Positions 17,422-36,179 of a stretch of DNA of 64,000 nt are shown here, piece by piece. The stretch lies in sequence record NC_042128.1; one strand, given 5' to 3'. Below the pieces are notes generated by a model that searched no databases, was not told the origin of the DNA, and saw nothing but the letters and a program-made list of their open reading frames with translations. How positions within the stretch are numbered: the first letter of the stretch is position 1; each line of letters opens with the position of its first letter. Both the position numbers and the translations under genes were made by a program. The DNA is from Escherichia phage RCS47.

Positions 17422-17425
17422 GGTT

Positions 17426-18046: not shown

Positions 18047-19304
18047 GACGAAACTCCTGCTGGGCACGGGCAAAGAACTGGATATCGCCGAAGTTACCTG
18101 ACTTCAGCGCCAGGGAGAGCGGCTGGCGGGTGTCACGCACCCAGGGCACGCCAGGGGAGATGGTCGGCCCAATATGGAACGCCTCAACCCCCAGGGTCTG
18201 CGCCACAATGCTCGACGTTTCCCCTCCGGCCACAATAAAGCGGGTAAATCCTTTCGCCTTCAGGGCGGCGGCAAGAGCGGCAAACAGCTGTTCCACCCGT
18301 TCGCTGCTGGCCTTGTCGCCATACTGCGCCTGGATCCGCTGCAGCGTTTGCGGCTCGGTGGTGGCATAGATCATCGGCGCCAGCGGCGCATCGCGCTGCG
18401 CGTCCACCCAGTCAGTCAGCGTCCTGACGTAGCTCTCCAGATCGGTAAAGCAGGCGCTTAAGTCGACGGCGCGGGCGGGGGCCTGTTGACGATAGGCCGC
18501 CACCTGGCTGTTGGTCATCACCGAGCAGGAGCCCGAGAGCACCACCGCCGGGCCGACCAGCGGCATGCCGGCCTGAGCGCTTTCACCCCGGGCGCCATGG
18601 CGCTGCGCCAAGTCGCGGGCGAGGCCGATGGCGAGGCCGGAACCGCCGGAGACCAGCTTCATCTCCCGCAGCGCCACGCCCTGGGTGAGCAGATCCTGTT
18701 CGCTGAGGGCGTCGAGCACCACATAGCGCACCGCCGGATCGTTGACTGCCGCCAGCGCGGCGGCGACCGCCTCCGGCCCCCGGGCGACAATCGGCCAGGC
18801 AATCAGCGCGGCTTTTCCGCGCCCCTGGCGCTCAATTAAGCGGCCCAGGTGCGCATCCTCCATCGGCGTCACCGGATGGTGGCGCATCCCGGACTCATTC
18901 AGCAGTTGCTCGCCGACGAACAGATATCCCTGATAGACCGTGCGGCCGTTAACCGGCAGCGCCGGGGAAATCACCGTCCGCGTCTCACCCAGCTCGGCCA
19001 GCAGGGCATCCAGCACCGGGCCAATGTTGCCCTGCGCGGTGCTGTCGAAAGTGGAACAGTACTTGAAATAAAACTGCTGACAGCCCTGGGCCTGCAGCCA
19101 GCGCAGGGCCGCCAGCGACTGGCTGACGGCCATTTCCGCCGGGCAGGAGCGAGTTTTCAGGCTGATGACCACCGCCTCGCTGGTCAGCGGAAGATCGCGG
19201 GTCGGCACGCCATTCAGTTGCACCGTCGGCATGCCGTTGCGCACGAGGAAGCTGGCAATATCCGTGGCGCCGGTGAAGTCATCGGCAATGACACCAAGCT
19301 GCAT
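18039..19304 (-). CDS. ygbK: four-carbon acid sugar kinase family protein (YgbK-like)
   Basis: ~421 aa; operon context. Confidence 0.6.
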   Translation of the reverse strand: MQLGVIADDFTGATDIASFLVRNGMPTVQLNGVPTRDLPLTSEAVVISLKTRSCPAEMAVSQSLAALRWLQAQGCQQFYFKYCSTFDSTAQGNIGPVLDALLAELGETRTVISPALPVNGRTVYQGYLFVGEQLLNESGMRHHPVTPMEDAHLGRLIERQGRGKAALIAWPIVARGPEAVAAALAAVNDPAVRYVVLDALSEQDLLTQGVALREMKLVSGGSGLAIGLARDLAQRHGARGESAQAGMPLVGPAVVLSGSCSVMTNSQVAAYRQQAPARAVDLSACFTDLESYVRTLTDWVDAQRDAPLAPMIYATTEPQTLQRIQAQYGDKASSERVEQLFAALAAALKAKGFTRFIVAGGETSSIVAQTLGVEAFHIGPTISPGVPWVRDTRQPLSLALKSGNFGDIQFFARAQQEFRHD

Positions 19305-19315
19305 GTTGTCTCTCC

Positions 19316-20218
19316 TCACTGTTTATGGCCCGGCAGGGTGATGCCGTTGAAAATCTTGATCACCGCGCTGTCATCTTCCCGACCGAATCCGGCATTACTG
19401 GCGGAGGTGAACATATTCAGCGCGGTGGTAGCGAGCGGCAGCGGGAAGGTCAGCGCCCGGGCAGTGTCATTCACCAGCCCGAGATCTTTGACAAAAATAT
19501 CGACAGCGGATTTTGGCGAGTAATCGCCATCCAGGACGTGCTGCATGCGATTCTCAAACATCCATGAATTACCCGCCGCGTGGGTGACCACGTCATACAT
19601 CGTTTCGAGTGGGATCCCGGCGCGGGCGGCAAGCGCCATCGCTTCGGCGGCAACGGCGATGTGCACCCCGGCCAGCAGCTGATGGATAATTTTTACCGTC
19701 GAGCCAAGACCAATGTCGCTCCCTATGCGGTAGACTTTGCCGGCCACGGCGTCCAGCACCGGCGCGAGGCGGGCAAAGGCGGCATCGCTCCCGGAGGCCA
19801 TCACCGTCATGTCGCCGGCGGCCGCTTTCACGGCGCCGCCCGATACCGGCGCGTCGAGCATCAATAGCTGGTACTCCGCCAGCGCCTCGGCAATGGCCTG
19901 AGCATCGGCGGAAGCGATGGTGGACGACACCATCACGACGGTGCCCGGCTTCAGATGGGCGGCGAGGCCGCTCTCGCCGAACAGGATCCCCCGCACCTGG
20001 GCGGCATTGACCACCAGCAGCACAACTGCATCCAGTTCCGCGGCGAACGGCACCGCGCTGGGGCCCGCGCCATTGGCGCCCGCCGCCAGCAGTGCGCGAC
20101 AGTTGTCGGGATTGATGTCAACGCCCCAGGTGTTCAGGCCCGCCTGCAGGCAGGCGCGGGCGGCGCCCATGCCCATTGAACCCAGTCCAATCACGCAGAC
20201 GTTAGTGTGTGCAGCCAT
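19316..20218 (-). CDS. ygbJ: NAD-dependent 3-hydroxyisobutyrate dehydrogenase family protein (YgbJ-like)
   Basis: 300 aa; N-terminal GLGSMG Rossmann motif. Confidence 0.7.
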   Translation of the reverse strand: MAAHTNVCVIGLGSMGMGAARACLQAGLNTWGVDINPDNCRALLAAGANGAGPSAVPFAAELDAVVLLVVNAAQVRGILFGESGLAAHLKPGTVVMVSSTIASADAQAIAEALAEYQLLMLDAPVSGGAVKAAAGDMTVMASGSDAAFARLAPVLDAVAGKVYRIGSDIGLGSTVKIIHQLLAGVHIAVAAEAMALAARAGIPLETMYDVVTHAAGNSWMFENRMQHVLDGDYSPKSAVDIFVKDLGLVNDTARALTFPLPLATTALNMFTSASNAGFGREDDSAVIKIFNGITLPGHKQ

Positions 20219-20478
20219 GCTGGTCTCCTTGTGAACATTAGTTAATTAATGTGATTTAATGATAGAATAAAGCGTTATCATGTGAATTTATGTGAGAGTT
20301 ATCACGAATAACCCACATGAATATAAAAAATTCACAGGCGGAAAGAGGCTGCACAACGGCGATTCTTGCCCTAAAATAGCGTAAAAACAGCGGCAAAGCG
20401 CGATAACAACACCGGGTGTCGCCAGGGCCGTAGCCTGGGTGGTGACGCCTGGTGTGAAAAAATGGTAAGGGGAGAGCG

Positions 20479-21240
20479 GTGATTCCAATAGAACGACATC
20501 AGCGTATTTTAGCCCTGGTGGAGCAGCGTGGGGCGGTAAGCATTAACGAGCTGACGGAGATCCTCGGCGTGTCCCATATGACCATCCGTCGGGACGTCAG
20601 TAAACTGGAGGAGCAGGGGCTGCTGGTCAGCGTCTCGGGCGGCGTGCGCGCCGTCAGCCGGCTGGCTGCGGAACCCAGTCATCTGGTGAAAAGCACGCTG
20701 CAGAGTGAGGAGAAACAGGCGATCGGCGCGCTGGCGGCGAGTCATATCGCTAAAAACAGTTGCATCTATCTGGATGCCGGGACTACCACCCTGGCGCTGG
20801 CGCGGGCGATCCTCGACCGGAACGATCTCCAGGTGGTCACCAATGATTTTGAGATAACCCAGCTGCTGATCGATGCCAGCCAGTGCGGCGTGATCCACAC
20901 CGGCGGCACTCTGTGCCGGGAGAACCGCTCCTGCGTGGGCGAATCGGCGGCGCGTACGTTACGCCACCTGGCTATCGATACGGCCTTTATCTCCGCCAGC
21001 GGCTGGGACAGTCGCGGGATATTCACCCCTGATGAGAACAAGGTTACCGTCAAGGAGACCGTCAGCCAGGTCAGCGCGAGAAGCATCCTGCTGTGCGACA
21101 GTTCGAAATACAATCAGGTGGCCACGTTTATGGCGTTACCTTTGACCCGGTTCACCACCATCATTACCGACCGGCATCTTTCCGATGCCGCCGCCAGTCA
21201 TATCGCCCGGCACGCCTGCGAGGTGCTGCGGGCCGGATAA
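20479..21240 (+). CDS. ygbI: DeoR family transcriptional regulator (YgbI-like)
   Basis: 253 aa; N-terminal HTH then sugar-binding domain; divergent from ygbJ. Confidence 0.7.
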   Translation: MIPIERHQRILALVEQRGAVSINELTEILGVSHMTIRRDVSKLEEQGLLVSVSGGVRAVSRLAAEPSHLVKSTLQSEEKQAIGALAASHIAKNSCIYLDAGTTTLALARAILDRNDLQVVTNDFEITQLLIDASQCGVIHTGGTLCRENRSCVGESAARTLRHLAIDTAFISASGWDSRGIFTPDENKVTVKETVSQVSARSILLCDSSKYNQVATFMALPLTRFTTIITDRHLSDAAASHIARHACEVLRAG

Positions 21241-21260
21241 CGCGCGCGGCCACCGCCGGG

Positions 21261-22121
21261 TTAGCGTTGCCAGTGCTCGATCAGCGCCGCGCCGATCCCG
21301 GCGATTTGCTGATTTCGCTCGGCCATGCTCGCCGGGGTATCCCGCAGATAAATCACCACAATGCGCTCTGCTTTGTTATTCGGGCCAAGCAGGGCGACAA
21401 TCCCGCGCGCACCCCGCTCGCTAGCTCCGGTCTTATCGGCGATAAACCAGCCCGCCGGCAGCACGGAGCGGATCAACGGTCCGGCGACCCGATCGTCCAC
21501 CATCCACTGCAGCAGCTGCCGTTGCGAACGGGCGCTCAGACGCTGGCTGGTCAGCAGCTTGCGCAGGGTCGCGGCCATGCTGGCCGGGGTAGTGGTGTCG
21601 CGGGCGTCGCCGGGAAGCGCCTCATTCAGTTCCGTTTCCCAGCGGTCAAGGCGGGTGACGTTGTCGCCGATCTGGCGCAAAAAGGCAGTCAATCCTGCGG
21701 GGCCGCCGACGGTGGCCAGTAGCAGATTGGCGGCGCTGTTATCGCTCATGGTAATGGCGGCGGCGCAGAGTTCGCCGACCGTCATGCCGTCGGCAAGGTG
21801 TTTTTCGCTGACCGGCGAGTAGTCCACCAGATCCTGCTGGCGATAGTGGATCTTTCGCTCCAGCTGTTCGTCACCGGCATCCACCCGCGCCAGCACTGCG
21901 CCGCAGAGCACTACTTTAAAGGTGCTCATCATGGGAAAGCGTTCATCGGCGCGCCAGGCGGTCAGCGTGCGGCCGCTGGCCAGATCCATTTCTATCATGC
22001 CTACGCGGCCCGACAGCTGGCTTTCGCTTAGTTTAATTTGCTCAAGCGGCTGCGGGCTGGCGTGTACCGCCAGCGGCAGGGTGGCTAACAGGGAGATAAT
22101 ACACAGGCGAATATAACGCAT
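21261..22121 (-). CDS. blaSHV: SHV class A beta-lactamase, Ser238 variant (SHV-2-like, extended-spectrum)
   Basis: 286 aa [21 protein letters not shown]...; [11 protein letters not shown] with AGC (Ser) codon at Ambler 238, Glu240, Leu35. Confidence 0.93.
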
Positions 22122-22397
22122 AACCACAATACATCCTTGAGTGAGGGCCGATAAAGGCGAGTAAAGAAGCGACAAATAAGAATAACCCGGCGTTTTGCTG
22201 ATTCACAATTCCTCTTTTTTCCTTCATCATTTTTCATCTTTTATTTCGAATAATCAATATCTAGCCCTGCCTAAGCACGCTATTTTTTGACTCAAGGCCG
22301 TGATGAACTATAAGAAAGTACTAAATACCGCACTCTGTCGGGCGTCGCTGTTTGCCGATCACCACGCCCGCCGGTCCCTGCGGTTCGCCAACGCTAT

Positions 22398-22679
22398 ATG
22401 CCATCCCGGGAGGAACTGGTGCACCCGATAATTAAGGTCATGCTGGTGGGCGGTAAGGCGGACGGGCTGTTGGTCAGCGTCGCCGATGACGCGACCGAAG
22501 TCTCGGTGACGCCTGCGCAGTACGGTGCGCTATCCGGGCAATCGTTGAGCTACCGAATTGTTAGCCAAACCATTGACGATGAACGCTATTTTTTTGGCGT
22601 TTTCAGCGACGCCCATCAGGATAGCGATAAGCTGACGCGGGTCGCCCTGACCCGTGGAATGAAAAAAATGTTCTGTTAA
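22398..22679 (+). CDS. hypothetical small protein upstream of recF-like ATPase
   Basis: 93-aa ORF, no recognisable motif. Confidence 0.3.
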   Translation: MPSREELVHPIIKVMLVGGKADGLLVSVADDATEVSVTPAQYGALSGQSLSYRIVSQTIDDERYFFGVFSDAHQDSDKLTRVALTRGMKKMFC

Positions 22680-22765
22680 ACCCTGCCCGAAAGGGGGCGT
22701 AAGAGGGTATGCCGGGCGCCGCTGTGCTACTGTGGCAGCCTTCTATTTCCAGGGCCGGACGCATA

Positions 22766-23854
22766 ATGATTCAGTACATTCGTATTCAAAATTTTCGCTC
22801 AGTAAAGGATATCGCGCTGGAGCTCGGGCCGCTGAACATTGTCTTCGGCCCTAACGGCTGCGGTAAATCCAATATTTATAACGCCATCCACCTGCTGACC
22901 GCTGCCGCTGAGGGCAGGCTTTCGGGGTTTATCAGCGAAGAGGGCGGTCTGGAGAATATGATGTGGTCCGGGGAGCGTTCGCCCCTCGATCGTCACCCCC
23001 GCCGGCTGCAAATCGCCTGCCGGACCGACAGCTTCGATTATGAACTGCAGATAGGCTTCCCTGAAAAATTGCCCTATCCGACGCAATTCATGCTCGATCC
23101 TATCGTTAAAGAAGAGAATATCTGGCTGGCCGGCTACTCCCGCCGGCCTTCCTCCCGCGTACTGCAGCGCAAGAATCAGGCGGCGTTTCTCGTCGATGTC
23201 ACCGGGGAGAAAAGTACTTTCACCGAGAGTATTTATGAAAATGAGTCGGTGTTCGGTCAGCTTGGCGAGCCGCACCGTTTTCCCGAAGTATCGCGAGTGC
23301 GGGAGACGCTGCGCCGTTGGCGGTTTTATCATGAATTCGCGATTGGCCGTCATTCGCCACTGCGTCAGCCGGCCGTGGGTTACCGTTCGCCAGTCCTCGA
23401 CAGCGATGGCCAGAATCTCGCCGCCGCCTTTCAGACCATTGTCGAGATCGGCGCGGAGGAGATTTTGCATGAAATCCTTGCCGACGCCTTTCCCGGCTGC
23501 CAGTTTTATTGTGAAAACGAGCACTCGCGTTTCGCTCTGAAAATGCGTCGCGAAGGGATCCGCCGCCCGCTGCTGGCGGCGGAGATGTCCGACGGTACGC
23601 TGCGCTTTTTGTGCCTCGCCGTCGCGCTGCTCAGTCCGCGCCCGCCGGCGTTTCTGGCGATCAATGAACCGGAGAACAGCCTGCATCGCGACATGTTGCC
23701 CGCGCTGGCCCGGCTGATTATCGAGGCCTCGCGCTACAGCCAGATCTGGCTGACCAGCCACTCGGCGGAGCTGGCGGAGCTTATCGCCGCCGGGGCGCCT
23801 TGTCAGCGCTATGCGCTGGAGAATCGCGGCGGTGAGACGCGGATTGTCGAGTGA
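22766..23854 (+). CDS. RecF-like AAA family ATPase
   Basis: 362 aa from ATG 22766; MIQYIRIQNFRS, Walker A GPNGCGKSN, C-terminal LAINEPENSLH. Confidence 0.7.
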   Translation: MIQYIRIQNFRSVKDIALELGPLNIVFGPNGCGKSNIYNAIHLLTAAAEGRLSGFISEEGGLENMMWSGERSPLDRHPRRLQIACRTDSFDYELQIGFPEKLPYPTQFMLDPIVKEENIWLAGYSRRPSSRVLQRKNQAAFLVDVTGEKSTFTESIYENESVFGQLGEPHRFPEVSRVRETLRRWRFYHEFAIGRHSPLRQPAVGYRSPVLDSDGQNLAAAFQTIVEIGAEEILHEILADAFPGCQFYCENEHSRFALKMRREGIRRPLLAAEMSDGTLRFLCLAVALLSPRPPAFLAINEPENSLHRDMLPALARLIIEASRYSQIWLTSHSAELAELIAAGAPCQRYALENRGGETRIVE

Positions 23855-23884
23855 AGCCCGTCATCCCTGACGGGGGCGCTGGAG

Positions 23885-24763
23885 TCAGGCGGGGCTCTGC
23901 GTCTCTGCGGTCGGCAGCAGACGGTTGCCGCCGCGTAGGGTGACGAACGAGAGCAGGGTGAAGCTCAGGGTTATGCAGCCGAGGATCAGATAGGCCTGAT
24001 GGAAGCCGACGGTGTCGTACATCCGGCCCACCCAGGCGGAAAGCACCACCCCGGACAGCTGTTTTGACAGATTAAAACCGATCAGGAACAGGGTGGCCGA
24101 GAGGCGCGGGTTAAAGGCGGAAGAGATATATTTAAAAGTTCCCACCAGCAGGAAGGGGATCTCAAACATATGCAGCATCTTGAGGATCACCACCTCGACT
24201 GCCGATGAGGCGAAGGACGACCCGAGAATACGCACCGACATGATCATCCCCGCGGTCAGCAGGGCGTTTTTGGCGCCGATGCGGTTAACGATGGCCGGCG
24301 CGCAGAACATGATCAGCGCGTTGAGCAACTCGCCGCCGGTGGTGACGAAGCCAAACACTTCGGTACCGCGCTGCGGACTGGCGAAAAAGCTTTTGAAAAA
24401 GTTGGCGAACTGCTGGTCAAACACGTCGTAGACGCTGGCGACACCCACCACATAGACGATAAAGCCCCAGAAGCGCGGCATACGCAGCAGCTCTGCCGCC
24501 GTACGCAGCGAAAAGGCCTGGCGATTGGCGCCCAGCGCCTCGATAACCTGGGCGCTGTTGCTGCTTTCCGGCCGCGACAGCCAGAGCAGCAGACCGAGCA
24601 CCAGCGCAAAGCCGGAGGCGATCCAGAAGGTGATATTGGGATCGATGCCGAACAGCACGCCGGTTATCGAGGCGCATAGCGCCCAGCCGACGCAGCCTGC
24701 GACCCGCACTTTGCCATATTCAAAGCGGTTGGCCCGGCTGACGCGTTCGATATAAGCTTCCAC
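23885..24763 (-). pseudogene. lacY: lacY lactose permease, 5' end truncated by IS26
   Basis: C-terminal ~290 aa of an MFS permease colinear with LacY (...FEYGKVRVAGCVGWALCAS...); frame continues into IS26. Confidence 0.8.
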
Positions 24764-25583
24764 GGCACTGTTGCAAATAGTCGGTGGTGATAAACTTATC
24801 ATCCCCTTTTGCTGATGGAGCTGCACATGAACCCATTCAAAGGCCGGCATTTTCAGCGTGACATCATTCTGTGGGCCGTACGCTGGTACTGCAAATACGG
24901 CATCAGTTACCGTGAGCTGCAGGAGATGCTGGCTGAACGCGGAGTGAATGTCGATCACTCCACGATTTACCGCTGGGTTCAGCGTTATGCGCCTGAAATG
25001 GAAAAACGGCTGCGCTGGTACTGGCGTAACCCTTCCGATCTTTGCCCGTGGCACATGGATGAAACCTACGTGAAGGTCAATGGCCGCTGGGCGTATCTGT
25101 ACCGGGCCGTCGACAGCCGGGGCCGCACTGTCGATTTTTATCTCTCCTCCCGTCGTAACAGCAAAGCTGCATACCGGTTTCTGGGTAAAATCCTCAACAA
25201 CGTGAAGAAGTGGCAGATCCCGCGATTCATCAACACGGATAAAGCGCCCGCCTATGGTCGCGCGCTTGCTCTGCTCAAACGCGAAGGCCGGTGCCCGTCT
25301 GACGTTGAACACCGACAGATTAAGTACCGGAACAACGTGATTGAATGCGATCATGGCAAACTGAAACGGATAATCGGCGCCACGCTGGGATTTAAATCCA
25401 TGAAGACGGCTTACGCCACCATCAAAGGTATTGAGGTGATGCGTGCACTACGCAAAGGCCAGGCCTCAGCATTTTATTATGGTGATCCCCTGGGCGAAAT
25501 GCGCCTGGTAAGCAGAGTTTTTGAAATGTAAGGCCTTTGAATAAGACAAAAGGCTGCCTCATCGCTAACTTTGCAACAGTGCC
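24764..25583 (+). mobile_element. IS26 copy 2 (direct orientation)
   Basis: 820 bp with same terminal IRs and identical transposase ORF. Confidence 0.92.
24827..25531 (+). CDS. tnpA: IS26 transposase
   Basis: identical 234-aa product. Confidence 0.95.
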   Translation: MNPFKGRHFQRDIILWAVRWYCKYGISYRELQEMLAERGVNVDHSTIYRWVQRYAPEMEKRLRWYWRNPSDLCPWHMDETYVKVNGRWAYLYRAVDSRGRTVDFYLSSRRNSKAAYRFLGKILNNVKKWQIPRFINTDKAPAYGRALALLKREGRCPSDVEHRQIKYRNNVIECDHGKLKRIIGATLGFKSMKTAYATIKGIEVMRALRKGQASAFYYGDPLGEMRLVSRVFEM

Positions 25584-26616: not shown

Positions 26617-27800
26617 CAGACCTGATCTGACAGTTACCGGTTATTTATACAGGTATCTGTCAGATTACATCTGGCTTAAATTTTTCTCGGCCCAGATGCG
26701 TTTTCCATCAAGTAACGTTTCCATTGGCGTACGCCCACAGCACATTTTTCCCTGATGAGTTCGCTCATTATTGTAATGCCACAACCACTTGTCCAGATCC
26801 ATTTGCAGGCTTTCCAGGTTTGTATATAGCTTTTTACGGAACGTAACCTGATAAAACTCCTGCAAAATGGTCTTATGGAAGCGCTCGCAGATGCCGTTCG
26901 TCTGCGGAGACATCGCCTTCGTTTTCGTATGGTCAATGTCGTTGATAGCCAGATACAACTGATAATCATGCTGCTCAACTTTACCACAGTACTCTGTTCC
27001 CCTATCGGTCATGATTCTCAGCATCGGCAGCCCCTGAGACTCGTAGAACGGCAGTACACGATCATTGAGCAAATCAGCTGCGGTGATCGGCGTTTTACTC
27101 GTATATAGTTTGCAGTGTGCCACTTTCGAGTACGTATCCACGAACGTCTGCTGATAGATACGGCCAACACCTTTCAGGTTGCCCACGTAGAAGGTGTCCT
27201 GTGACCCCAGATACCCCGGATGTGCCGTTTCGATTTCACCGTTGGCCTCATCATCCTGGGCTTTCTTTTCTAGCGCTGCGATTTGAGCGTCAGTGAGTAC
27301 GATCCCTTCTCTGGCGACTTTTTCTTCAAGTGCTTTCAGACGTTTACGGAAGTTCTCCAGGTCGTGTCGTTGCCAGATGGAGCGTACGCCGCTGCCGGAG
27401 ATAAATACGCCTTTCTTACGCAGTTCATTACTGGTCCGGTGCTGCCCATGAGCCGGAAACTCAATTGCGTACTCAACAACTGCACGTTCAGTCGCTTCAT
27501 CGACACGGTTCTTTATGTTCGGGACTCTGCGGTTCTGATTAACCAAAGCATCAATACCGCCTTCCTCAGCCAGTTCCTGATAGCGGTAAAATGTGTCGCG
27601 TGACACCCCCATGATTTTACAGGCTTTTGATACGTTACCGAGTTCTTCGGCGAGGTTGAGCAGACCGACTTTGTGTTTGATGATGGGATTGTTAGTATGA
27701 AGCATGAGAGTTACCTCGTGTTTTGTATAAGGATTAGACACCCATATCAAAACCGGTAACTCTCAACCTTTCAAGGCTCAGTGTCAGATCAAGTCGCGAC
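26617..27800 (-). mobile_element. IS481-family insertion sequence (boundaries approximate)
   Basis: single transposase ORF flanked by imperfect inverted repeats containing TGATCTGACA and GTTACCGGTT. Confidence 0.6.
26665..27705 (-). CDS. IS481-family DDE transposase (HTH plus rve integrase core)
   Basis: 346 aa from ATG 27705 after GAGGT; C-terminal ...SPQTNGICERFHKTILQEFY... integrase-core signature. Confidence 0.7.
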   Translation of the reverse strand: MLHTNNPIIKHKVGLLNLAEELGNVSKACKIMGVSRDTFYRYQELAEEGGIDALVNQNRRVPNIKNRVDEATERAVVEYAIEFPAHGQHRTSNELRKKGVFISGSGVRSIWQRHDLENFRKRLKALEEKVAREGIVLTDAQIAALEKKAQDDEANGEIETAHPGYLGSQDTFYVGNLKGVGRIYQQTFVDTYSKVAHCKLYTSKTPITAADLLNDRVLPFYESQGLPMLRIMTDRGTEYCGKVEQHDYQLYLAINDIDHTKTKAMSPQTNGICERFHKTILQEFYQVTFRKKLYTNLESLQMDLDKWLWHYNNERTHQGKMCCGRTPMETLLDGKRIWAEKNLSQM

Positions 27801-27811
27801 TAATACAGATT

Positions 27812-27837
27812 AAAAAAATCCCGCCGATTGGCGGGAT
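27812..27837 (-). terminator. rho-independent terminator ending the dar operon
   Basis: ATCCCGCC-GATT-GGCGGGAT followed on the minus strand by T7. Confidence 0.6.
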
Positions 27838-27841
27838 TTCT

Positions 27842-28153
27842 TCAATATACGATCTGGTCTACATGATCACCAAAATCATCGTCGTCGTCGTCCTCATCGC
27901 CACCATCTACTGCTGGCCAATCAACAAACCAGCCAGCGTAAAGATGCAGCGTTCGGAGAACATCACTTGCGGGAGCATCAAGGGTGTTAACGAATCCCAT
28001 ATAGCTATTGGGATTTGCCCCAGCTATGGCTTCAGCGATCATGTCCTCGGTAATGTCACCGGAGATAATGCTTAAACGCCCGGAAACTTCTTCATTATCA
28101 TCAAATTCGATAATGGCATCTCCGCCTAATGGCGCTGCGATTTTAATCTGCAT
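27842..28153 (-). CDS. highly acidic small protein, last gene of dar operon
   Basis: 103 aa, overlaps ddrB stop; GGDEDDDDDDFGDH acidic tract. Confidence 0.5.
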   Translation of the reverse strand: MQIKIAAPLGGDAIIEFDDNEEVSGRLSIISGDITEDMIAEAIAGANPNSYMGFVNTLDAPASDVLRTLHLYAGWFVDWPAVDGGDEDDDDDDFGDHVDQIVY

Positions 28154-31130
28154 TATTTAGCTCCTTTGCCACACCTAATAACAGTTCCAGCAATCCGTCA
28201 CCATTCATCAGTGATGCGGCAGCGGCCTCTTTGTCATGATACAACTGAAGAGCCATAGAGAATACTTCCGTTGCTGACGTTTTGGAAATAGTCGGTGATT
28301 TCTGCCGAATTTTCCCTGAGTTACTCACTGAGACTGGCGGGTATACCTTCGCCATATAAATATTACTCAATCGAGATCTGAAGCACCATTCAGGCTTGCC
28401 ACGCCCACCGATATTGACGAAAGATGGCTTATCCCCTTCAACATTGGCCTTCAGGAATGACCGGGCTTTCTCTAACAAACCAGGGTTACTGTACTCAAGA
28501 TGATGACCCAGCTCGTGCCACAGTGCATTTGCATTTTCATCGTGCAAATCGACAGCAACAACACCATTAAGATTTGCATACGCCCTACCCTGGTGGTGAA
28601 CTACCTTTGATAAGGTCGATATTTTCCCGCCGGTCAGGCGATAAATATCAGCAAGTTCCTTGCGCAGGTCTATCCCACCATTCTGTCCAGCGCGGGCTTC
28701 TTCCACTTCTTCCGTGATAAAAGAGTCGGCCCACTCAAGAGCTTTTTCTTCTGATACAGATGAGTTGGCGATCGCACTGTTCATGGCAGATAACACTTTC
28801 TCGTAGACCGAATCCATACTTCGCTGATTCATTTGCCAGCGTGTCTGCGGGTTATATGAGAATCGCTTAAGTAGTTGGTCAAGCTGCTCAAGTTCTTCTT
28901 CACTGACATACTTTTTAGCCTCACCAATAATGCCAGGGAGAATATTGCCGTTAGGATTAAACGCTCGCGAAAGGAAGAGTTTCAGCGCCCCCATGCCCTC
29001 CGATGCTTCAATATCACCAATAACCCGGTTAACAATGGCCGCACTCTTCGGATTAGCATCCGCCAACGCTCTGGCTACGATTTGCAGGGACGATACGACC
29101 TCACGCTGCATATCAGTCCTGATCTCATCAATAAACTCTGGCGTTATGCCGTGCTCTTTAAGGATATCCCGGCCTTCCGCCGTTACCCCATCGATATCAC
29201 CGACATGTTTATTAACACGACTTTGCAATGCCTTAAATGCCTTCAGAATTCCACGGGAATCATCCGCTTTACTAACGGCCTTCCTGAATGCTGGCAAGAA
29301 GTCTGAGTTAACCTCATTTTGTTGATCGGCCCACTGAATGGAGGCTTCTTTCATCTCGTCCAGAGTCAGATCACCCAACGCGGTATGGTCTGTGAATATG
29401 AGCGACAACCTCTGAACCATTTCTGCCAATGGTGATGCCGAATGCGCCGCGCTAAGGAATGCTTTCACCCTGGTTGGGCGAATGGAAAACCAGTCAATAG
29501 CTGGTGGCATATCTCCGTTTTGTATCGCCTGCGCTATCTCATCAAAGCCATCGCGCCCAAGGGAAGATGCGTGATTTAACAATCCGCGAAGTAACGAATT
29601 GCTGATACCGAATAATCGGCACCATTTATTCACGTCGGCAACAGGCATTCGAACAAAATGCGCAAGCACTTGTACAAGCTGTTCATCCTGGGGATCTGTG
29701 CGGGAAAGCAGCCTGATCAGATGAATAATGTCTTTGATGCCGGATGCCCGATGTAATAGCAAACTGGTATACGGAGCAACACCGTTGTAACTACCGCCGG
29801 AAACGGACTCGAAAAGACCGCCGGATATCCCTTGCATGCCTTCGTTTTCCAGTTCCTGAGACACCTGGCGAAGGATATCCTGTAACGACACATCGCCGCC
29901 GCCAAACATATCCCCGAGCGCCTGGCCCTGGTGCTGTAACTCATCATTGATACGTTGCGCCATCAACTTAAAGGCGGTGGCCATACGCTTCGCGCTACGG
30001 TTATTCGCGACGATGAACAACGCGAGTGCTTTCACTTCCGGGGCCGTTTCGCTGAACATATCCCCCTGAGCAATAACATCGGTAATATGCTGGCCTAACT
30101 CCTTCGATTGCCTTACCAGGTCTACCGCATCTTTCAATGCCGCCAGCGCCTTTTTATCGAGGCTATCCGCTGTCTCAATGCCATCAACAATAGTTGTCAC
30201 AGCCTGCTTGTGCGCTTCTCCTGACAAAGCCTGCATCTGGACAAAATCATTGGCTGCCGCATTAAGCGCCGTCAGAACATTACGCATATCCGGATCAGGT
30301 TCTTCTGCAACCATCCTTACCAGGCGCGCATCCTTATATGCCTTGGCAAAGATCGCGTTTTGTATACGGTCTACAAGTTGCCGTGTTGGTCGCCCATCTT
30401 CAGTTACAAGGCCAGCCGCCTGTGTGGCACCAACTTGCGTCATAAATCCGCGAATAAACGTGTCATTACTGCGGCTAAGCAGATCTCCGCTTTCTGACGG
30501 GTTAAAAAGCGCCATCATCGCCGGTGTTATGCTGTCGGCATCAACAAAAGCCTTTTCACTGGCTGCCATTTCCTGAAGATCAGAAATATTTGAGTCCTTG
30601 GCAAACTGAACGCGGTCAACCTTAGTTAACCGGCGGCGCACCAGTACCGGAGCCGTCATTGATTCAACCTTTTCAGGTCGTATGCCGAATTCGGTCGCAT
30701 GATCAATCAGGTACTCACGATACCGATCCGCATTGCCGTCCTGATAGGCTTTAATGATCCCCATGGTCCGTCCATTACCTGACTCAACGGCATTGTCCTC
30801 ACCAATTATCGGCGCGCCATGGCTGGATAGACCGGAATCGGTAAGCTGAGCAGGCCGCAAATCCTTGGATATCTGGTTAACCTGAAGAAGGCTGGATGCG
30901 CGGGTCCGGTCGCGCGGTTGAAGTTCCTGGGGATAGTCAGGATTAATTTTCCCATCCAGAGTATTGGATACCAAAAGAGCTGAGGCATCGACGATATCAA
31001 ACGCTGTTTTTACCTCGTCTCCCTTCGCTGTCACCACATACGAAACCCGCCCATAATCGGGCAGGTTCTTTAGCAGCTCGATCAGCGTTTCTATGCTGGT
31101 GGCCATTACCACCTGATCGCTTAAGCTCAT
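28143..31130 (-). CDS. DdrB-like antirestriction accessory protein
   Basis: 995-aa ORF with ATG start; position downstream of darA/ddrA as in P1. Confidence 0.55.
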   Translation of the reverse strand: MSLSDQVVMATSIETLIELLKNLPDYGRVSYVVTAKGDEVKTAFDIVDASALLVSNTLDGKINPDYPQELQPRDRTRASSLLQVNQISKDLRPAQLTDSGLSSHGAPIIGEDNAVESGNGRTMGIIKAYQDGNADRYREYLIDHATEFGIRPEKVESMTAPVLVRRRLTKVDRVQFAKDSNISDLQEMAASEKAFVDADSITPAMMALFNPSESGDLLSRSNDTFIRGFMTQVGATQAAGLVTEDGRPTRQLVDRIQNAIFAKAYKDARLVRMVAEEPDPDMRNVLTALNAAANDFVQMQALSGEAHKQAVTTIVDGIETADSLDKKALAALKDAVDLVRQSKELGQHITDVIAQGDMFSETAPEVKALALFIVANNRSAKRMATAFKLMAQRINDELQHQGQALGDMFGGGDVSLQDILRQVSQELENEGMQGISGGLFESVSGGSYNGVAPYTSLLLHRASGIKDIIHLIRLLSRTDPQDEQLVQVLAHFVRMPVADVNKWCRLFGISNSLLRGLLNHASSLGRDGFDEIAQAIQNGDMPPAIDWFSIRPTRVKAFLSAAHSASPLAEMVQRLSLIFTDHTALGDLTLDEMKEASIQWADQQNEVNSDFLPAFRKAVSKADDSRGILKAFKALQSRVNKHVGDIDGVTAEGRDILKEHGITPEFIDEIRTDMQREVVSSLQIVARALADANPKSAAIVNRVIGDIEASEGMGALKLFLSRAFNPNGNILPGIIGEAKKYVSEEELEQLDQLLKRFSYNPQTRWQMNQRSMDSVYEKVLSAMNSAIANSSVSEEKALEWADSFITEEVEEARAGQNGGIDLRKELADIYRLTGGKISTLSKVVHHQGRAYANLNGVVAVDLHDENANALWHELGHHLEYSNPGLLEKARSFLKANVEGDKPSFVNIGGRGKPEWCFRSRLSNIYMAKVYPPVSVSNSGKIRQKSPTISKTSATEVFSMALQLYHDKEAAAASLMNGDGLLELLLGVAKELNNAD

Positions 31131-31139
31131 CCCTGTTAC

Positions 31140-32477
31140 GCCTTATCCAATGTGCCGCCCCCTACGCTCCTCATAGTGGGGATATAAGGCACAGTTTTCC
31201 TCCCGGCTATTTTTGCTTAAAATAGTGACATGAAACAACAGGTGTCATTCAAATTCCGGTTAAAACCAGATGGTCAACAGGAGCGTCAAATGAGGCGCTT
31301 TGCCGGAGCTTGTCGTTTCGTTTTCAACCGTGCTCTGGCGCTTCAGAATGAGAATCATGAGGCCGGTAAAAAATACATCCCTTACACGAAAATGGCTTCC
31401 TGGTTGGTTGAGTGGAAAAAAGACACTGAAACCGAATGGCTTAAAGATTCTCCCTCACAGCCATTGCAACAGTCACTGAAAGACCTTGAGCGGGCTTACA
31501 AAAACTTCTTCCAGAATCGGGCAGCTTTTCCCCGATTCAAAAAGCGGGGACAGAATGATGCATTCCGCTACCCGCAGGGTGTTAAGCTCGATCAGGAAAA
31601 CAGCCGTATTTTTCTGCCGAAACTTGGCTGGATGCGCTACCGGAATAGCCGTCAGGTCACGGGTATTGTGAAAAATGTTACTGTCAGCCAGTCCTGCGGT
31701 AAGTGGTACATCAGTATTCAGACAGAAAGAGAGGTATCCACTCCTGTTCACCCTTCAGCATCAATGGTCGGACTGGATGCTGGCGTGGCTAAACTCGCCA
31801 CGCTGTCAGATGGCACAGTCTTTGAACCTGTAAATAGTTTTCAGAAAAACCAGAAGAAGCTGGCGAGACTTCAGCGACAGTTAAGCCGCAAGGTCAAATT
31901 CAGCAACAACTGGCAGAAGCAGAAACGCAAAATACAGCGACTGCATTCCCGTATCGCAAATATCCGCAGGGACTACCTTCACAAAGTCACAACGACCGTC
32001 AGCAAAAACCACGCAATGATTGTCATTGAGGATTTGAAGGTTAAATACATGTCAAAGTCAGCGGCGGGAACGATAAGTCATCCGGGTCGCAATGTCCGGG
32101 CAAAATCAGGTTTAAACCGTTCGATACTGGATCAGGGCTGGTATGAAATGCGCCGCCAGCTTGAGTACAAGCAGCTCTGGCGTGGCGGTCAGGTGCTTGC
32201 TGTTCCGCCAGCGTACACAAGCCAGCGTTGCGCGTGCTGTGGTCATACAGCGAAAGAAAATCGCCTGTCACAAAGTAAATTCAGATGCCAGGTATGTGGA
32301 TATACAGCGAACGCCGATGTAAACGGCGCTCGTAACATTTTAGCGGCGGGGCACGCCGTACTTGCCTGTGGAGGGATGGTGCAGTCAGGCCGCCCGTTGA
32401 AGCAGGAACCCACCGAAATGATTCAGGCGACAGCCTGAACGTAGCAGGAATCCACGCCCTTCGGGGCGTGGAGGATG
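31140..32477 (+). mobile_element. TnpB-only IS200/IS605-family element (boundaries approximate)
   Basis: tnpB ORF plus 3' hairpin CCACGCCC-TTCG-GGGCGTGG at 32452-32471; fills the ddrA-ddrB junction. Confidence 0.6.
31230..32438 (+). CDS. tnpB: TnpB RNA-guided endonuclease family protein
   Basis: 402 aa; [36 protein letters not shown]..., RuvC-like motifs and CxxC...CxxC zinc finger. Confidence 0.85.
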
Positions 32478-32843
32478 TCACGCTGCCTCTTTAATGTTGG
32501 CGGCTATCCATGCCGCCGTGTGCTGTTTAACCTGGTCCAGGTCGATGTATGTGCCAACATATTGACTCAAGTCCTGTAACGTACCGATAAATGCATCAGT
32601 GCTCTGATCGACGAATTTATCAGCCAGGAAATCAGCAACCAGTTTTGGCACACCATCATGTACCGAAGGTTGTTTTTCCTCGCCACTACTGCCGCCGGAC
32701 GCGCCGTACCCCATCTGTTGCATGATCTGGTCAATTTCATCGCTGATATCCAGCAACTCCATGCCACTCGCGGTAGCCGCTTTGGACATCAGAGCATCCA
32801 ACTTATCGCTGAGGTCCATTAACTCAATAGCTGATAGTGTCAT
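32478..32843 (-). CDS. DdrA-like protein
   Basis: 121 aa, immediately downstream of darA. Confidence 0.5.
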   Translation of the reverse strand: MTLSAIELMDLSDKLDALMSKAATASGMELLDISDEIDQIMQQMGYGASGGSSGEEKQPSVHDGVPKLVADFLADKFVDQSTDAFIGTLQDLSQYVGTYIDLDQVKQHTAAWIAANIKEAA

Positions 32844-34759
32844 GCCGCTACCCCCGCTTTCTGGATTGCTACCAGCAGATCAGCCAGGTGGCGAGCAGCG
32901 CCATTAACCAGCTCTTCGTTTTCCTCAAAACGTCCGGCAGCCTGAAGGGCTGCAATCGCTTCCCGGACATTGCCCCGGGCGTTACGGATCTCCGCCATGT
33001 CAGTGCTTTGCATATCCATCACGTTATTGAGATATTCAATGGCTTTATTAGCCTCTGCATCTGCTTCGCTAACCGTTTCATCAGGCTGTGCCGGGGCCGG
33101 TTCTGGCTGAGTAATCTCACCGACTTCGGCCTGCAATGCATTGATCATGCTCTGCACCATTTTCTCGGTGCCAGCGCCCCCCGGAAACGCAATATTGGGG
33201 AAAGTTTTTTGAAACTGAGTCTTCAGCATTACTCGGAACTCGTCTGGTGAGCTGGTGGCCAGCTCCAGAGCTTTTTGTGCATATTTGCCAAACGGACCAT
33301 TAGTAAGTGTCTTCGCCAGGAAGTCGAAAGAATCCTCGCGAGGCAATAACTTCAGGTCGTACTCACTCATTTGCTGATCAGAAAGCGGGGTATCGTAAGT
33401 AGCAATGCCGTAGCGTGCATATTCATAATACGGGTCACCTTCATCAGGGCGCGGCAGAATTGCTTTGTTACCTTCAGGTATTGCGCCAGGGGCCGCCGGA
33501 CGCATTTGCAGGGCATATCGATATGCACCTACAGAGACTTCTGGTTCAGGCGAAGAGCTACCGGTATCCTCCGCTGGTTCAGGTTCGACGTTTTCCGGTT
33601 TATGTTCTTCTGGTTGGACCAGGTATTCCGATACATTACCCGCTTTATAGGCTTTAAACAGCTTGCCGATCGCATCTGCCATGTCCACACCCTGTATGGA
33701 TTTAGCCTTGATCATGTACACGCTGCCATCCGAATCGGTTAACTGGATATACCCTTCACCGTCCTCAATGAATTGCTTCATTGATGCACCATTACTGAGC
33801 GTCACTTCCCCGTTCATATGCATACGATTTTTGATACTTGCAAGGCGATCCGTCATCGCGCGAGAGTGTCCACCAGTCATCCCCGCAGGAGCAATGGTTT
33901 CGCGCCCACCAGTGCGATTGAGCTGATCAATCTCCGTCTGCAAACGCTCATTCTCTTCATAAAGAGAATCCGCTTCCGATGCAACAGCGTTAATTTTCTG
34001 CTCCAGATCTGCCTTCTGCCCTTCTACCGCTGCCACCTGATCCGCGAGGTCGCTCATGGCATCCTCTTTCTGGTCACTGTCAGCCTGTAGTTGGGTTATT
34101 TCATCAACAAGGGCTTTTTTCTTCTTCTGCGCACGCTGGAATTTTGCCGAGTTTTTCTCTGCAAGGTTGGCAAGTTTCATGGTGACCTGCGCCAGCGTCA
34201 TATCACGTCCACTCATCGGAGCAACGGTGTGAGTAACGTCTTTTTTATTCAGTAAGAACTGGAAAGCAACCAGCGTATCGCTATTGGTGATCCGGTTTTC
34301 CGCTGTCGGGCTATGAAACAGAATGCTGATAGTCTGACCATCACTGAGCGGAATAATGGCAGGCAGGACTGGCAGCCCGTTAACGTTACGTGCCCGGCCA
34401 ATTTCAGCGCCGCCGATCGCGCGCGCGCCGCTCTGGGCCACATCCCCCGTTTTATCACTCCCCGCAGAGATTCCGGTACCATTCAGCTTCTGGTTCAATG
34501 CCCGGACAAATGCCTGCATGGTCCGGTGTAACTGCAAACGAGTAGAACTAATCGCCTCCAGTAAATCCGTAGCACACCAGTGGATCGGCGTGTCATAGAA
34601 GAACGTAGCCTCGATTTCCTCCAGGGTGTTGGATTCCGTCATCAGATAGCGGCCCTCACCGGCCATTAATGCGCGATATTCATCATCAGTCACTGGCGGG
34701 GGAAGCACGTCAAGCCCAGGTTTGATCGTCACCCCTTTATTGATATTGAACTGTTCCAT
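32840..34759 (-). CDS. darA: DarA-like antirestriction / capsid internal protein
   Basis: 639 aa, size and position match P1 DarA; coiled-coil middle region. Confidence 0.6.
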   Translation of the reverse strand: MEQFNINKGVTIKPGLDVLPPPVTDDEYRALMAGEGRYLMTESNTLEEIEATFFYDTPIHWCATDLLEAISSTRLQLHRTMQAFVRALNQKLNGTGISAGSDKTGDVAQSGARAIGGAEIGRARNVNGLPVLPAIIPLSDGQTISILFHSPTAENRITNSDTLVAFQFLLNKKDVTHTVAPMSGRDMTLAQVTMKLANLAEKNSAKFQRAQKKKKALVDEITQLQADSDQKEDAMSDLADQVAAVEGQKADLEQKINAVASEADSLYEENERLQTEIDQLNRTGGRETIAPAGMTGGHSRAMTDRLASIKNRMHMNGEVTLSNGASMKQFIEDGEGYIQLTDSDGSVYMIKAKSIQGVDMADAIGKLFKAYKAGNVSEYLVQPEEHKPENVEPEPAEDTGSSSPEPEVSVGAYRYALQMRPAAPGAIPEGNKAILPRPDEGDPYYEYARYGIATYDTPLSDQQMSEYDLKLLPREDSFDFLAKTLTNGPFGKYAQKALELATSSPDEFRVMLKTQFQKTFPNIAFPGGAGTEKMVQSMINALQAEVGEITQPEPAPAQPDETVSEADAEANKAIEYLNNVMDMQSTDMAEIRNARGNVREAIAALQAAGRFEENEELVNGAARHLADLLVAIQKAGVAA

Positions 34760-34760
34760 G

Positions 34761-35372
34761 TTAATTTCCTGCTTTCAGTTGCTTAAGACGGCGTTTGAGT
34801 TCGCCATTTCGGGCCTTTTCGTTATTGAGTCGGCCTGTCTCCTTATCCAGCTTCGCCCGCAAATCAGTGATCTGCTGTTGATTGAAAGACACCGAGTTCT
34901 GCGCTGATTTATAAGCGGCAACCACCTGAGCATTCCGCTGTTTTGCCTCTTGCAGGCGCTGAAAGTTGGATTTTACTGCCGGTTTCTTGTCTACCGGATT
35001 GGCAACACGTTTCGCTTTGGCGATCAGTGATTTCTGGAATTTTGCGGAGTTTTTGCGGGCCGCTTGCCCCATGACGGTACCAAGCGTCTTGATATCCGGC
35101 GACTGAGCGTTAGGAATAGCTTTTCCATTCAGCCTCACAGACGATATATCGCCAGTATCGTTTACCTGTATGGCAAGAATTTGTCCGTCGTTAAGAACCA
35201 GCTTTGCGGTTTTAACTTTAACGCCATCTTTCGTTGTTGCGCGGTTGCTGGAGTCAACCTCAATTACCGTAACACCGGTTTTATTGATCGCCGCGATAAG
35301 GGATTTCAGCCCCTTTTCATTAACCTGGTCAAAATCGACCGTTGCATACTTATTTCTCGTCATCTGACACAT
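34761..35372 (-). CDS. Hdf-like protein
   Basis: 203 aa immediately upstream of darA. Confidence 0.45.
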   Translation of the reverse strand: MCQMTRNKYATVDFDQVNEKGLKSLIAAINKTGVTVIEVDSSNRATTKDGVKVKTAKLVLNDGQILAIQVNDTGDISSVRLNGKAIPNAQSPDIKTLGTVMGQAARKNSAKFQKSLIAKAKRVANPVDKKPAVKSNFQRLQEAKQRNAQVVAAYKSAQNSVSFNQQQITDLRAKLDKETGRLNNEKARNGELKRRLKQLKAGN

Positions 35373-35793
35373 CCTGTGCGAGATTTATTACGTAACTTCT
35401 GCGGATTTGCTGAGTAACAGGGAAAATCCGATACAACGGGTTAATGAACGAGTCGCCATGCGTAACCATGACGTTGAAATGCCACAGCCGTTCTCCTTTA
35501 CCCATATATTCAGTGGGTATGTACAACCATTCACTGTTTTCGCCCTGTTCAGCCGACGTCAGACAACGTTGTTCGCCTTCAATCACTGTCGTTGGCTTCT
35601 GAACATCGCGGATCCAATATCTGACCGTTGCGCCGCGCAAAAACGGGAATTTAGACCGGTATTTGAACGGCACCCGGATGAAACCCGGTTTAATTTCCAC
35701 ATCACCAAGTTCTAAATGCGTGATGTCCTTGCGTTTTAGCAAATAGCGATCGGCTAAGGCTAACGCAAGAACGCATACACCCCAGCCAATCAT
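35350..35793 (-). CDS. LydB-like antiholin
   Basis: 147 aa, overlaps upstream holin gene. Confidence 0.45.
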   Translation of the reverse strand: MIGWGVCVLALALADRYLLKRKDITHLELGDVEIKPGFIRVPFKYRSKFPFLRGATVRYWIRDVQKPTTVIEGEQRCLTSAEQGENSEWLYIPTEYMGKGERLWHFNVMVTHGDSFINPLYRIFPVTQQIRRSYVINLAQDVSDDEK

Positions 35794-36119
35794 TTCCCGC
35801 CTCCCTTTTTCACCAAACTTGTAAGAACATTCAGAATGCTATCGATATTCACTCGTTTCATCCCTGAAATCACCTCATGACCGTTATTGCTGGCTATCGT
35901 TACCATTAAGTACGTAATTGATAACTCCCAGCCCTCGTGTTGCCCCAATAGGTACGCCACCGCGCCAGCTGTCACTGCAACAAAGATCTCCGTAACCAAT
36001 CCCAACAAATTGCCAGACTGGCGACCGTCTCGGACATCCATCAGGAACGTGCCTATCCCACCAATTACTGAAAGCAGGAGCGCAATAGCAACTGGAGCTA
36101 ATTCCTGTGTGTCAAGCAC
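35790..36119 (-). CDS. LydA-like holin
   Basis: 109 aa with three hydrophobic segments and Lys-rich C-terminus. Confidence 0.55.
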   Translation of the reverse strand: MLDTQELAPVAIALLLSVIGGIGTFLMDVRDGRQSGNLLGLVTEIFVAVTAGAVAYLLGQHEGWELSITYLMVTIASNNGHEVISGMKRVNIDSILNVLTSLVKKGGGK

Positions 36120-36179
36120 AAGTTCCCTCCTACGTTGTCAGGAGGTAATGGTATGCAAAGTAACTTCTCATCTGGTTGT

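Follow-up and report, generated by a model that had tools for sequence, protein, structure and literature searches.

Our subject is hxr, a small gene in a 64,000-nucleotide (nt) stretch of Escherichia phage RCS47 (NC_042128.1); the whole of this stretch is called the window below. The 701 bases around the hxr open reading frame (ORF) match 17 Punavirus records at 97.5–98.9% identity and, judged by its sequence, the window is a P1/SJ46-type phage-plasmid. The hxr coding sequence (27842..28153, minus strand), the orthologue of P1_gp021, was taken from the ORF list and its translation; it runs from an ATG start to a TGA stop and specifies a protein of 103 amino acids (aa), Hxr, directly behind ddrB in the late operon that includes darA. 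The conserved genomic partner of the Hxr family is the ~220-residue metallopeptidase (MPTase) domain found at the C-terminus of DdrB, and not the ParB domain of DdrB or antirestriction operons in general. Hxr is real, conserved and late-expressed, and its production is tied to that of DdrB. It is probably a partner dedicated to the MPTase domain. The fuller reading that we favour, in which Hxr binds the MPTase module of DdrB as its partner and regulator, has in our judgment an even chance of being right, and the specific mechanism of an inhibitor whose tail lies in the peptidase cleft is tentative.

Association of hxr with the metallopeptidase end of ddrB

DdrB is a protein of 995 aa (28143..31130, minus strand; PHROG 2299 and P1 annotation) with an N-terminal ParB domain, a variable middle and a C-terminal MPTase domain. 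The ddrB-ParB domain occupies residues 36–167 (30630-31025, minus strand) and matches Pfam PF18763 at 2e-39. The putative zincin-like MPTase domain, residues ~775–995 (28146..28808, minus strand), was assigned from motifs, alignment and the literature (PMC5512222). The motif W-HELGH-HLE lies at residues 871–879, its HExxH at 28503-28517, and the domain also contains TEVFSMALQ; in an alignment of 8 divergent MPTase domains, W-H-E-x-G-H-x-x-E and T-E-x-x-S-M-x-x-Q were invariant. Searches with the domain by blastp and tblastn gave matches in proteins of Vibrio and other phages. Iyer et al. (2017; PMC5512222) classed DdrB among the 'polyvalent proteins', with ddrB-ParB as its N-terminal domain and a zincin MPTase at the C-terminus, and it is a founding example of the MPTase-containing polyvalent proteins of phages and conjugative elements. 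They also cite the processing of DdrB to ~76 kDa ahead of packaging, and propose the MPTase as the agent of this autoprocessing.

In six divergent lineages, from Rosenbergiella, Klebsiella and metagenomic contigs, in which Hxr is 29–59% identical, hxr lies right after a full-length ddrB with an overlap of 11–17 nt. The genes 3' of hxr differ in every lineage, and include ssb, a RelE/MqsA pair, an Arc-like gene, a porin gene, a gene for a CHAP protein and insertion sequence (IS) elements. Hxr also changes at the pace of the MPTase end of its neighbour. DdrB evolves at two speeds: across P1-like lineages residues 1–450 are 58–90% identical and residues 701–995 are 35–46% identical, with residues 451–700 barely alignable (20–35% identity or no match). 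Hxr, at 29–46% identity across lineages, diverges like the C-terminal half of DdrB (20–46%) and unlike the N-terminal half (58–90%). The fast-changing C-terminal module would be consistent with an arms race or with co-evolution.

The association is also seen where the locus has been broken. At locus L095, darA, ddrA and ddrB match the window at 96–100% DNA identity as far as ~28520, a breakpoint that falls at DdrB residue ~871, at the HExxH motif (HELGH at 872). Beyond the breakpoint and through hxr the DNA identity is only 56–80%, the last ~125 ddrB codons being divergent. Phage D6 retains hdf-darA-ddrA and DdrB residues 1–454, i.e., the ParB half, and lacks both the MPTase and hxr. Similarly, zero Hxr matches were found in Acinetobacter, Alcaligenes, Pseudoalteromonas and Shewanella phages having only the N-terminal half of DdrB. 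The reciprocal arrangement occurs at loci L193 and L204, the latter identical to the Pantoea alvi contig L262. In both, darA-ddrA is followed by a protein of 530–535 aa that shares only its last ~220 residues with DdrB; this MPTase protein has no ddrB-ParB domain, and an Hxr-family gene is still present, at a spacing of -1/+1 nt. The idea that Hxr might be an immunity protein or chaperone for the ParB (DNase/NTPase-like) domain of DdrB is disfavoured, because D6 and the other phages keep the ParB half without Hxr and L193 and L204 show the converse.

The hxr ATG (28151-28153) falls within the final ddrB codons, and the ddrB stop, TAA, is at 28143-28145. The coupling region (28143..28166, minus strand) contains an AAGGAG Shine-Dalgarno sequence (28161-28166) separated from the ATG by a 7-nt spacer. 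An earlier reading made from the letters of the window (below, the sequence-only reading) had proposed that hxr is translationally coupled to ddrB, that it is the final gene of an antirestriction operon and that the operon terminator follows it. All three proposals hold: the genes overlap by 11 nt behind an AAGGAG sequence, hxr closes the darA operon, and an intrinsic terminator (27810..27839, minus strand) with a 10-bp GC-rich stem (AAAUCCCGCC/GGCGGGAUUU), a loop of AAUC and a U7 run begins its hairpin 2 nt past the hxr stop. The minimum free energy helix of this terminator is 17 bp long, at -24 kcal/mol, with z = -6.4 against shuffled sequences, 0/200 of which folded as well. A consensus terminator scan did not pick up the hairpin, probably because the flanking A-run and U-run lengthen the stem and use up the T tail. 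Homology to P1/SJ46 stops at ~27808, just past the terminator.

The Hxr protein and its family

The translated product of 103 aa is MQIKIAAPLGGDAIIEFDDNEEVSGRLSIISGDITEDMIAEAIAGANPNSYMGFVNTLDAPASDVLRTLHLYAGWFVDWPAVDGGDEDDDDDDFGDHVDQIVY. That hxr is a real gene is indicated at the sequence level by a match of its product to PHROG 2292 (3.2e-60 over residues 1–103), by invariant core residues in its relatives, and by poly-Asp variants that stay in frame. The composition includes 18 Asp, 6 Glu, 1 Lys and 2 Arg, for a net charge of ~-21 at pH 7 and an isoelectric point (pI) of 3.4 with EMBOSS pK values; the Biopython calculation floors at 4.05. Among the 100 window ORFs of at least 80 aa, Hxr is the most acidic: its charge per residue is -0.204, and that of DdrA, the next in rank, is -0.107. 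It also contains the longest run of Asp and Glu, DEDDDDDD. This run is encoded by GAT GAG (GAC)4 GAT GAT (27875..27898, minus strand), a length-polymorphic triplet repeat in the DNA of the tract. The charge is divided between residues 1–82, with -10, and the last 21 residues, with -11, in agreement with the sequence-only reading of a 103-aa protein that is acidic throughout. That reading was not right about the C-terminus, which runs past ...FGDH and continues VDQIVY.

An AlphaFold2 model of Hxr from the single sequence was unusable (predicted local distance difference test, pLDDT, of 39), and a model built with an alignment of 24 sequences was used instead. In this model residues 1–82 (27908..28153, minus strand) form a predicted folded core of beta-beta-beta-alpha ... 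alpha-beta order, with strands at residues 2–6, 12–16, 28–32 and 76–78 and helices at 36–44 and 62–71. The means of pLDDT over ten-residue blocks range from 70 to 89 for residues 1–80. Residues 83–103 (DGGDEDDDDDDFGDHVDQIVY; 27845..27907, minus strand) make up the acidic C-terminal tail, which is predicted to be disordered (block means 39–51) and ends in a conserved aliphatic-aliphatic-Y/N tip.

Hxr of RCS47 is 100% identical to Hxr of phage SJ46 by tblastn, and ~99% identical to P1 Hxr (P1_gp021, YP_006490) over residues 1–80. Compared with the P1/SJ46 gene, it is the same gene in the same place after ddrB, with the same overlap and the same terminator; the differences are in poly-Asp length and a few substitutions. 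Database searches found 14 and 30 relatives with identities down to 29%, all on P1-like contigs of ~80–96 kb from Enterobacterales. Seven core residues, G53, V65-L66-R67, W75 and W79-P80, are invariant in relatives at 29–60% identity. The tails of all 24 relatives have 18–23 residues, a net charge of -7 to -13 and zero basic residues; the tail sequence is not conserved, yet it usually ends in I/V-V-N or I-V-Y. The acidity of both core and tail is maintained across the family. Among P1-like genomes that are otherwise ~95–100% identical (IMG/VR loci L007-L086), the length of the poly-Asp run ranges between D4 and D9 and every variant stays in frame, a pattern suggestive of slippage under selection to keep the C-terminal FGDHVDQIVY. 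In distant members of the family the tails are mixed and probably helical, and the poly-Asp run is confined to the P1 lineage, of which it is therefore an elaboration. In general, then, family members are small (~95–120 aa) acidic proteins of two parts, a compact alpha/beta core and an acidic tail of ~20 residues with an aliphatic-aliphatic-Tyr/Asn tip. At L095 a protein of 184 aa (5001-5555; P0015) has two tandem Hxr domains, the first with a short tail and the second with a full acidic tail. FG-GAP repeat proteins matched by phmmer (P0021, P0026, P0027) share low-complexity GD..GDG similarity and are not Hxr relatives.

The GenBank record of P1 labels hxr a 'possible repressor' and 'homolog of Xre', and that of SJ46 'putative repressor protein Hxr'. 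The only support for an Xre-like helix-turn-helix (HTH) repressor comes from a note in the P1 GenBank entry, in which residues 23–80 are said to be 28% identical to Xre. Against this, Hxr has no Pfam match at E <= 10, and HTH families were unmatched at E <= 1 in all 24 relatives. Three N-terminal beta strands are predicted in the model where an all-helical HTH would be expected, and a pI of 3.4 with a net charge of -21 is incompatible with DNA binding. Further, hxr is a late-operon gene coupled to the gene of a virion protein. With HTH profiles unmatched, an acidic pI and a beta-rich model, the repressor assignment is effectively refuted, and we give it next to no chance. Searches with Hxr of NCBIfam and PADLOC also gave zero matches. 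The unsupported repressor or Xre label has spread across P1 NC_005856, SJ46 KU760857, JL22, pSCKP83 and others.

The family reaches beyond the relatives recovered by these searches. We scanned IMG/VR with an alignment of the DdrB C-terminal domain, and searched all fetched loci with an iterative hidden Markov model (HMM) seeded by the Hxr alignment, covering 2,802 non-redundant ORFs with a length of at least 60 aa. The search converged on 45 hits, and 45/45 were on the + strand, the strand of the MPTase gene. Each newly recruited member starts at locus position ~2900–3000, just beyond the MPTase match, and the new members scored E 1e-4 to 6e-10. The family was extended by hhalign to the small ORFs of L200 (P = 5e-5) and L209 (P = 6e-5). 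An independent scan of one genome per GTDB species found the MPTase-Hxr pairing in Serratia, Citrobacter, Chimaeribacter, Pantoea and Escherichia. Under the terms searched, the text of PMC5512222 mentions neither Hxr nor a conserved small gene 3' of the MPTase, and the pairing seems not to have been noted there.

More distant DdrB-type MPTase genes are also followed by a small ORF: those of three Vibrio phage lineages and of contigs from Desulfovibrio, Verrucomicrobia, Anaerovibrio, Streptococcus, Bacillus and Neisseriaceae. These ORFs encode 76–132 aa and lie at -19 to +14 nt from the MPTase gene. Most of the distant positional analogues are acidic (net -4 to -21), and several end in ...RIY, ...VIY, ...VVY or ...IEY. 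The Vibrio ORFs of BX-1/VAP7, Bakedbeans and D509 resemble Hxr by eye; their homology to Hxr is not supported, hmmsearch giving 3.8 bits and hhalign 0.5%, then 12%. A database search with the BX-1 ORF returned 2 relatives only, so that a profile could not be built for it. For Vibrio phage VAP7, the small ORF after the MPTase gene bears the label 'tetraspanin-15', apparently through a wrong transfer of annotation. Extensions of ~130–170 aa behind the MPTase domain in L181, L186, L191, L195, L199 and L223 were considered as Rosetta-stone fusions and are not Hxr-like. At L195 and L268 the position of Hxr is taken by long ORFs of 507 aa (net -59; spacing -4 nt) and 621 aa (spacing -1 nt), respectively, whose first ~80–100 residues look by eye like the small proteins, with a strand-strand-'TGD' motif; in these the small domain may have been fused to another part. 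A background control for large genes coupled to a small acidic ORF was contaminated by darA-ddrA pairs and unrecognised MPTase genes, and was not used.

Proposed function of Hxr and its alternatives

From its co-inheritance and coupling with the MPTase module, we infer that Hxr binds and regulates that module. In this model Hxr would be made in fixed proportion to DdrB, ribosomes stopping at the end of ddrB and restarting at the overlapping hxr start, and would then bind the MPTase module. As a cognate regulator it would most likely be a prodomain-like or inhibitor-like clamp, or a folding helper. The conserved combination of folded core, acidic linker and fixed tip at the C-terminus suggests, as a speculation, a tethered peptide, with the flexible acidic tail and its tip sitting in the cleft of the peptidase and so inhibiting it. 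Hxr would control the timing of DdrB processing (108 to 76 kDa), would restrain the peptidase within the producing cell and while heads assemble, and would itself stay out of the virion. A broader form of the proposal is possible though doubtful: Hxr-like proteins would be a cross-phyla family of cognate regulators of the zincin peptidase in virion-delivered polyvalent proteins, in which the core docks and the tail tip threads the active-site cleft as a product or pseudo-substrate mimic, timing the self-processing and arming of effectors such as DdrB in head assembly.

Several points weigh against this reading. Since hxr and the MPTase end of ddrB are adjacent, contiguity alone can account for their joint loss or replacement, and a single deletion, as in D6, or a single recombination tract, as at L095, can move both. 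The weight of the argument therefore lies with the reciprocal case of L193 and L204, with the coupling of rates and with the fact that the pairing recurs in genomic contexts unrelated to one another. The MPTase assignment is a likely one that comes from motifs and the literature and is undetected by Pfam: searches of Pfam with the DdrB C-terminus found no peptidase family above threshold, a sub-threshold Reprolysin_3 being seen for the Bakedbeans homologue only, and sequence and profile searches of the PDB with the DdrB C-terminus gave zero matches. The proposed Hxr-MPTase interaction is drawn from comparative genomics, and the AlphaFold2 model of Hxr, from the 24-sequence alignment, is of moderate confidence (mean pLDDT 76). 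The homology of Hxr to the small ORFs of distant phyla and of Vibrio phages is not established, with hhalign probabilities of 0.1–12%, and the Vibrio ORFs lack an acidic tail, their products being neutral or basic. DdrB-type MPTase genes without any such ORF occur at L183, L263, L270 and L271 and in Xanthomonas phage Rb1. The C-terminal tip [IVLE][IVLE][YNF] is found in 17/39 lineage representatives and in 21/1,878 background ORFs of similar size; this difference speaks for the reading, yet it is inflated by relatedness and by a motif picked post hoc and is therefore only a lead. Finally, a passage in PMC10695390 reports normal plating both for a clean hxr deletion from earlier work and for knockdown by CRISPR interference; any role in the handling of DdrB would therefore be dispensable on laboratory hosts.

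The sequence-only reading took Hxr for a DNA mimic that inhibits restriction. As such it would be an acidic decoy, Ocr/ArdA-like or an acidic SSB-type tail mimic, acting against restriction or other DNA-targeting defences, either co-injected from the capsid or acting late in the producing cell, e.g., against nucleases that attack replicating or packaging DNA. Like Ocr (T7 gp0.3), ArdA and Arn, Hxr is a small and very acidic protein encoded by a phage in an anti-restriction setting. Its acidity, ~-0.2 charge per residue and the highest among the window ORFs, is kept in core and tail throughout the family, and hxr is part of an antirestriction operon. The acidic run followed by a hydrophobic/aromatic C-terminus is also reminiscent of the tails of SSB and T7 gp2.5. 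The mimic proposal is nevertheless unsupported by every line that could be tested, and several lines lean against it. Profile searches of the PDB with the Hxr family and the extended family gave only E > 1 or zero matches, and Foldseek comparison of the Hxr model with the PDB and BFVD gave zero matches at E <= 0.001; Hxr therefore shows no relationship to any solved protein, Ocr, ArdA, Arn and Gam included, and the solved mimics are unmatched in both sequence and fold. Half of the charge would be in a flexible tail, predicted to be disordered and variable between lineages, rather than on a rigid surface. Outside Dar operons, too, hxr accompanies the MPTase, and loci that retain only the ParB half of DdrB lack it; hxr has a peptidase domain as its partner. 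It is expressed from a late promoter, unlike the early or leading-region genes of the known mimics, and its deletion causes no plating defect. According to Iida (1987), as cited in a passage of PMC12707154, Dar protects in cis only, whereas Ocr acts in trans, as would be expected of a mimic that titrates an enzyme. Six Dar proteins are listed as incorporated into the head in later papers and a review, and Hxr is not among them. On these grounds we regard a DNA mimic as decidedly unlikely.

Virion proteomes are of limited help. The P1 virion proteome, a list of 27 proteins from liquid chromatography-tandem mass spectrometry, includes DdrB, DdrA, DarA, Hdf, DarB and Ulx, and Hxr is missing from it. 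The study used trypsin with a cut-off of at least 2 peptides. In Hxr the only tryptic sites are K4, R26 and R67, giving peptides of 4, 22, 41 and 36 aa, of which essentially one is usable, and its absence is therefore weak evidence, also where it might be held against a co-injected mimic. The near blindness of the method to Hxr leaves room for another view, that Hxr is a low-copy internal virion protein and a seventh Dar accessory, which enters the head in complex with DdrB and is injected along with the DNA. Once in the new host it would work together with DdrB or upon it, e.g., as an activator or adaptor of the peptidase, or it would be required for protection against restriction systems not yet assayed. 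The layout of the operon, in which hxr, like the genes of the packaged DdrA and Ulx, lies right after a large Dar gene, favours this view, as does the strict coupling of hxr to ddrB. It is opposed by the virion proteome, in which Hxr is unreported, and by the list of six head-incorporated Dar proteins, from which it is missing. In addition, the MPTase part of DdrB is predicted to be cleaved off before packaging (Iyer et al., PMC5512222); if so, a partner bound to the MPTase would be left behind. We think it unlikely that Hxr is such an accessory.

The darA operon, its surroundings and related gene arrangements

The darA operon lies on the minus strand in the order LPdar, lydA, lydB, hdf, darA, ddrA, ddrB, hxr and terminator. 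The late promoter LPdar (36148-36166, minus strand) matches P1 LPdar exactly in its -22 box and -10 element. Three ORFs assigned from the P1 annotation follow it, lydA (35790-36119), lydB (35350-35793) and hdf (34761-35372), all on the minus strand; Hdf is strongly basic, with a net charge of +21 and a pI of 10.3. They are followed on the same strand by darA (32840-34759), identified by Pfam DarA_N and DarA_C and the P1 annotation, and by ddrA (32478-32843), an ORF named from the P1 annotation. Between ddrA and ddrB, on the opposite strand and as in SJ46, there is an IS605-family tnpB (31230..32438, plus strand), which matches Pfam OrfB_IS605, Cas12f1-like TNB and HTH_OrfB_IS605 and is annotated insQ in SJ46. 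It adds ~1.3 kb of antisense DNA to the stretch from LPdar to ddrB-hxr, and this insertion may have lowered or uncoupled the expression of ddrB-hxr in the RCS47 element. Within ddrB there is a putative antisense ORF of 132 aa (30178-30576, plus strand), at a position comparable to that of iddB annotated in P1.

Variable cargo accumulates 3' of hxr in all relatives, a hot spot where IS1/isaB, an ompD-like porin gene, toxin-antitoxin pairs or ssb are found. In the window the hxr terminator is adjoined by an IS481-family transposase gene (26665-27750, minus strand). Farther along, an insertion bounded by IS26 (15992-25531) carries a Klebsiella-type blaSHV module into the ssb/isaA region of the P1 backbone. 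IS6-family transposase genes at 15992-16714 and 24809-25531 flank it, and the gene for the SHV class A beta-lactamase is at 21261-22175 (minus strand). The other cargo consists of ygbM/L/K/J-like oxo-tetronate/threonate genes, the repressor gene ygbI, a gene for a RecF/AAA-like ATPase and a 5'-truncated gene for a lacY-type permease.

Each of the three large Dar genes is followed by a small gene, in the pairs darB-ulx (small gene at 3752-4192, minus strand), darA-ddrA (small gene at 32478-32843, minus strand) and ddrB-hxr. Hxr is thus like Ulx and DdrA in being a small protein encoded directly 3' of a large Dar gene in a late operon, with a gap of 33 nt for darB-ulx and an overlap of 4 nt for darA-ddrA. 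It is also like them in acidity, DdrA being acidic overall (net -13) and Ulx in a C-terminal stretch. Ulx has been reported to aid the localisation of DarB, and the shared layout also speaks for Hxr as a partner of DdrB. We detected no sequence relationship of Hxr to Ulx or DdrA. DdrA and Ulx occur in virions and show antirestriction phenotypes; Hxr is unreported in virions, and for the hxr deletion no phenotype is reported.

The staphostatins ScpB/SspC, the serralysin inhibitors Inh/AprI and the products of polymorphic-toxin immunity genes are cognate inhibitors or immunity proteins encoded in the operons of their targets. The arrangement of hxr is similar, in that a small gene lies directly 3' of, and is co-expressed with, the end of a gene that encodes a protease or toxin domain, and hxr co-varies with that domain. 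Sequence and fold similarity of Hxr to these inhibitors was absent in the searches run, and an acidic disordered tail with a conserved tip is not a defining feature of the known operon-encoded inhibitors.

In sum, the hxr gene was already catalogued, and what seems new is the rejection of the repressor label, the link to the MPTase and a family that reaches well beyond P1. If Hxr is a partner of the MPTase, a repressor label that has been copied into many phage-plasmid annotations would be corrected, and the maturation of DdrB would become directly testable. P1-like phage-plasmids carry clinically relevant resistance genes, and correct annotation of their backbone therefore has practical value. 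If the wider pairing also holds, the MPTase domain and its small acidic partner would form a conserved two-gene module, which would be relevant to the question of how effector proteases that are injected stay inactive until delivery.

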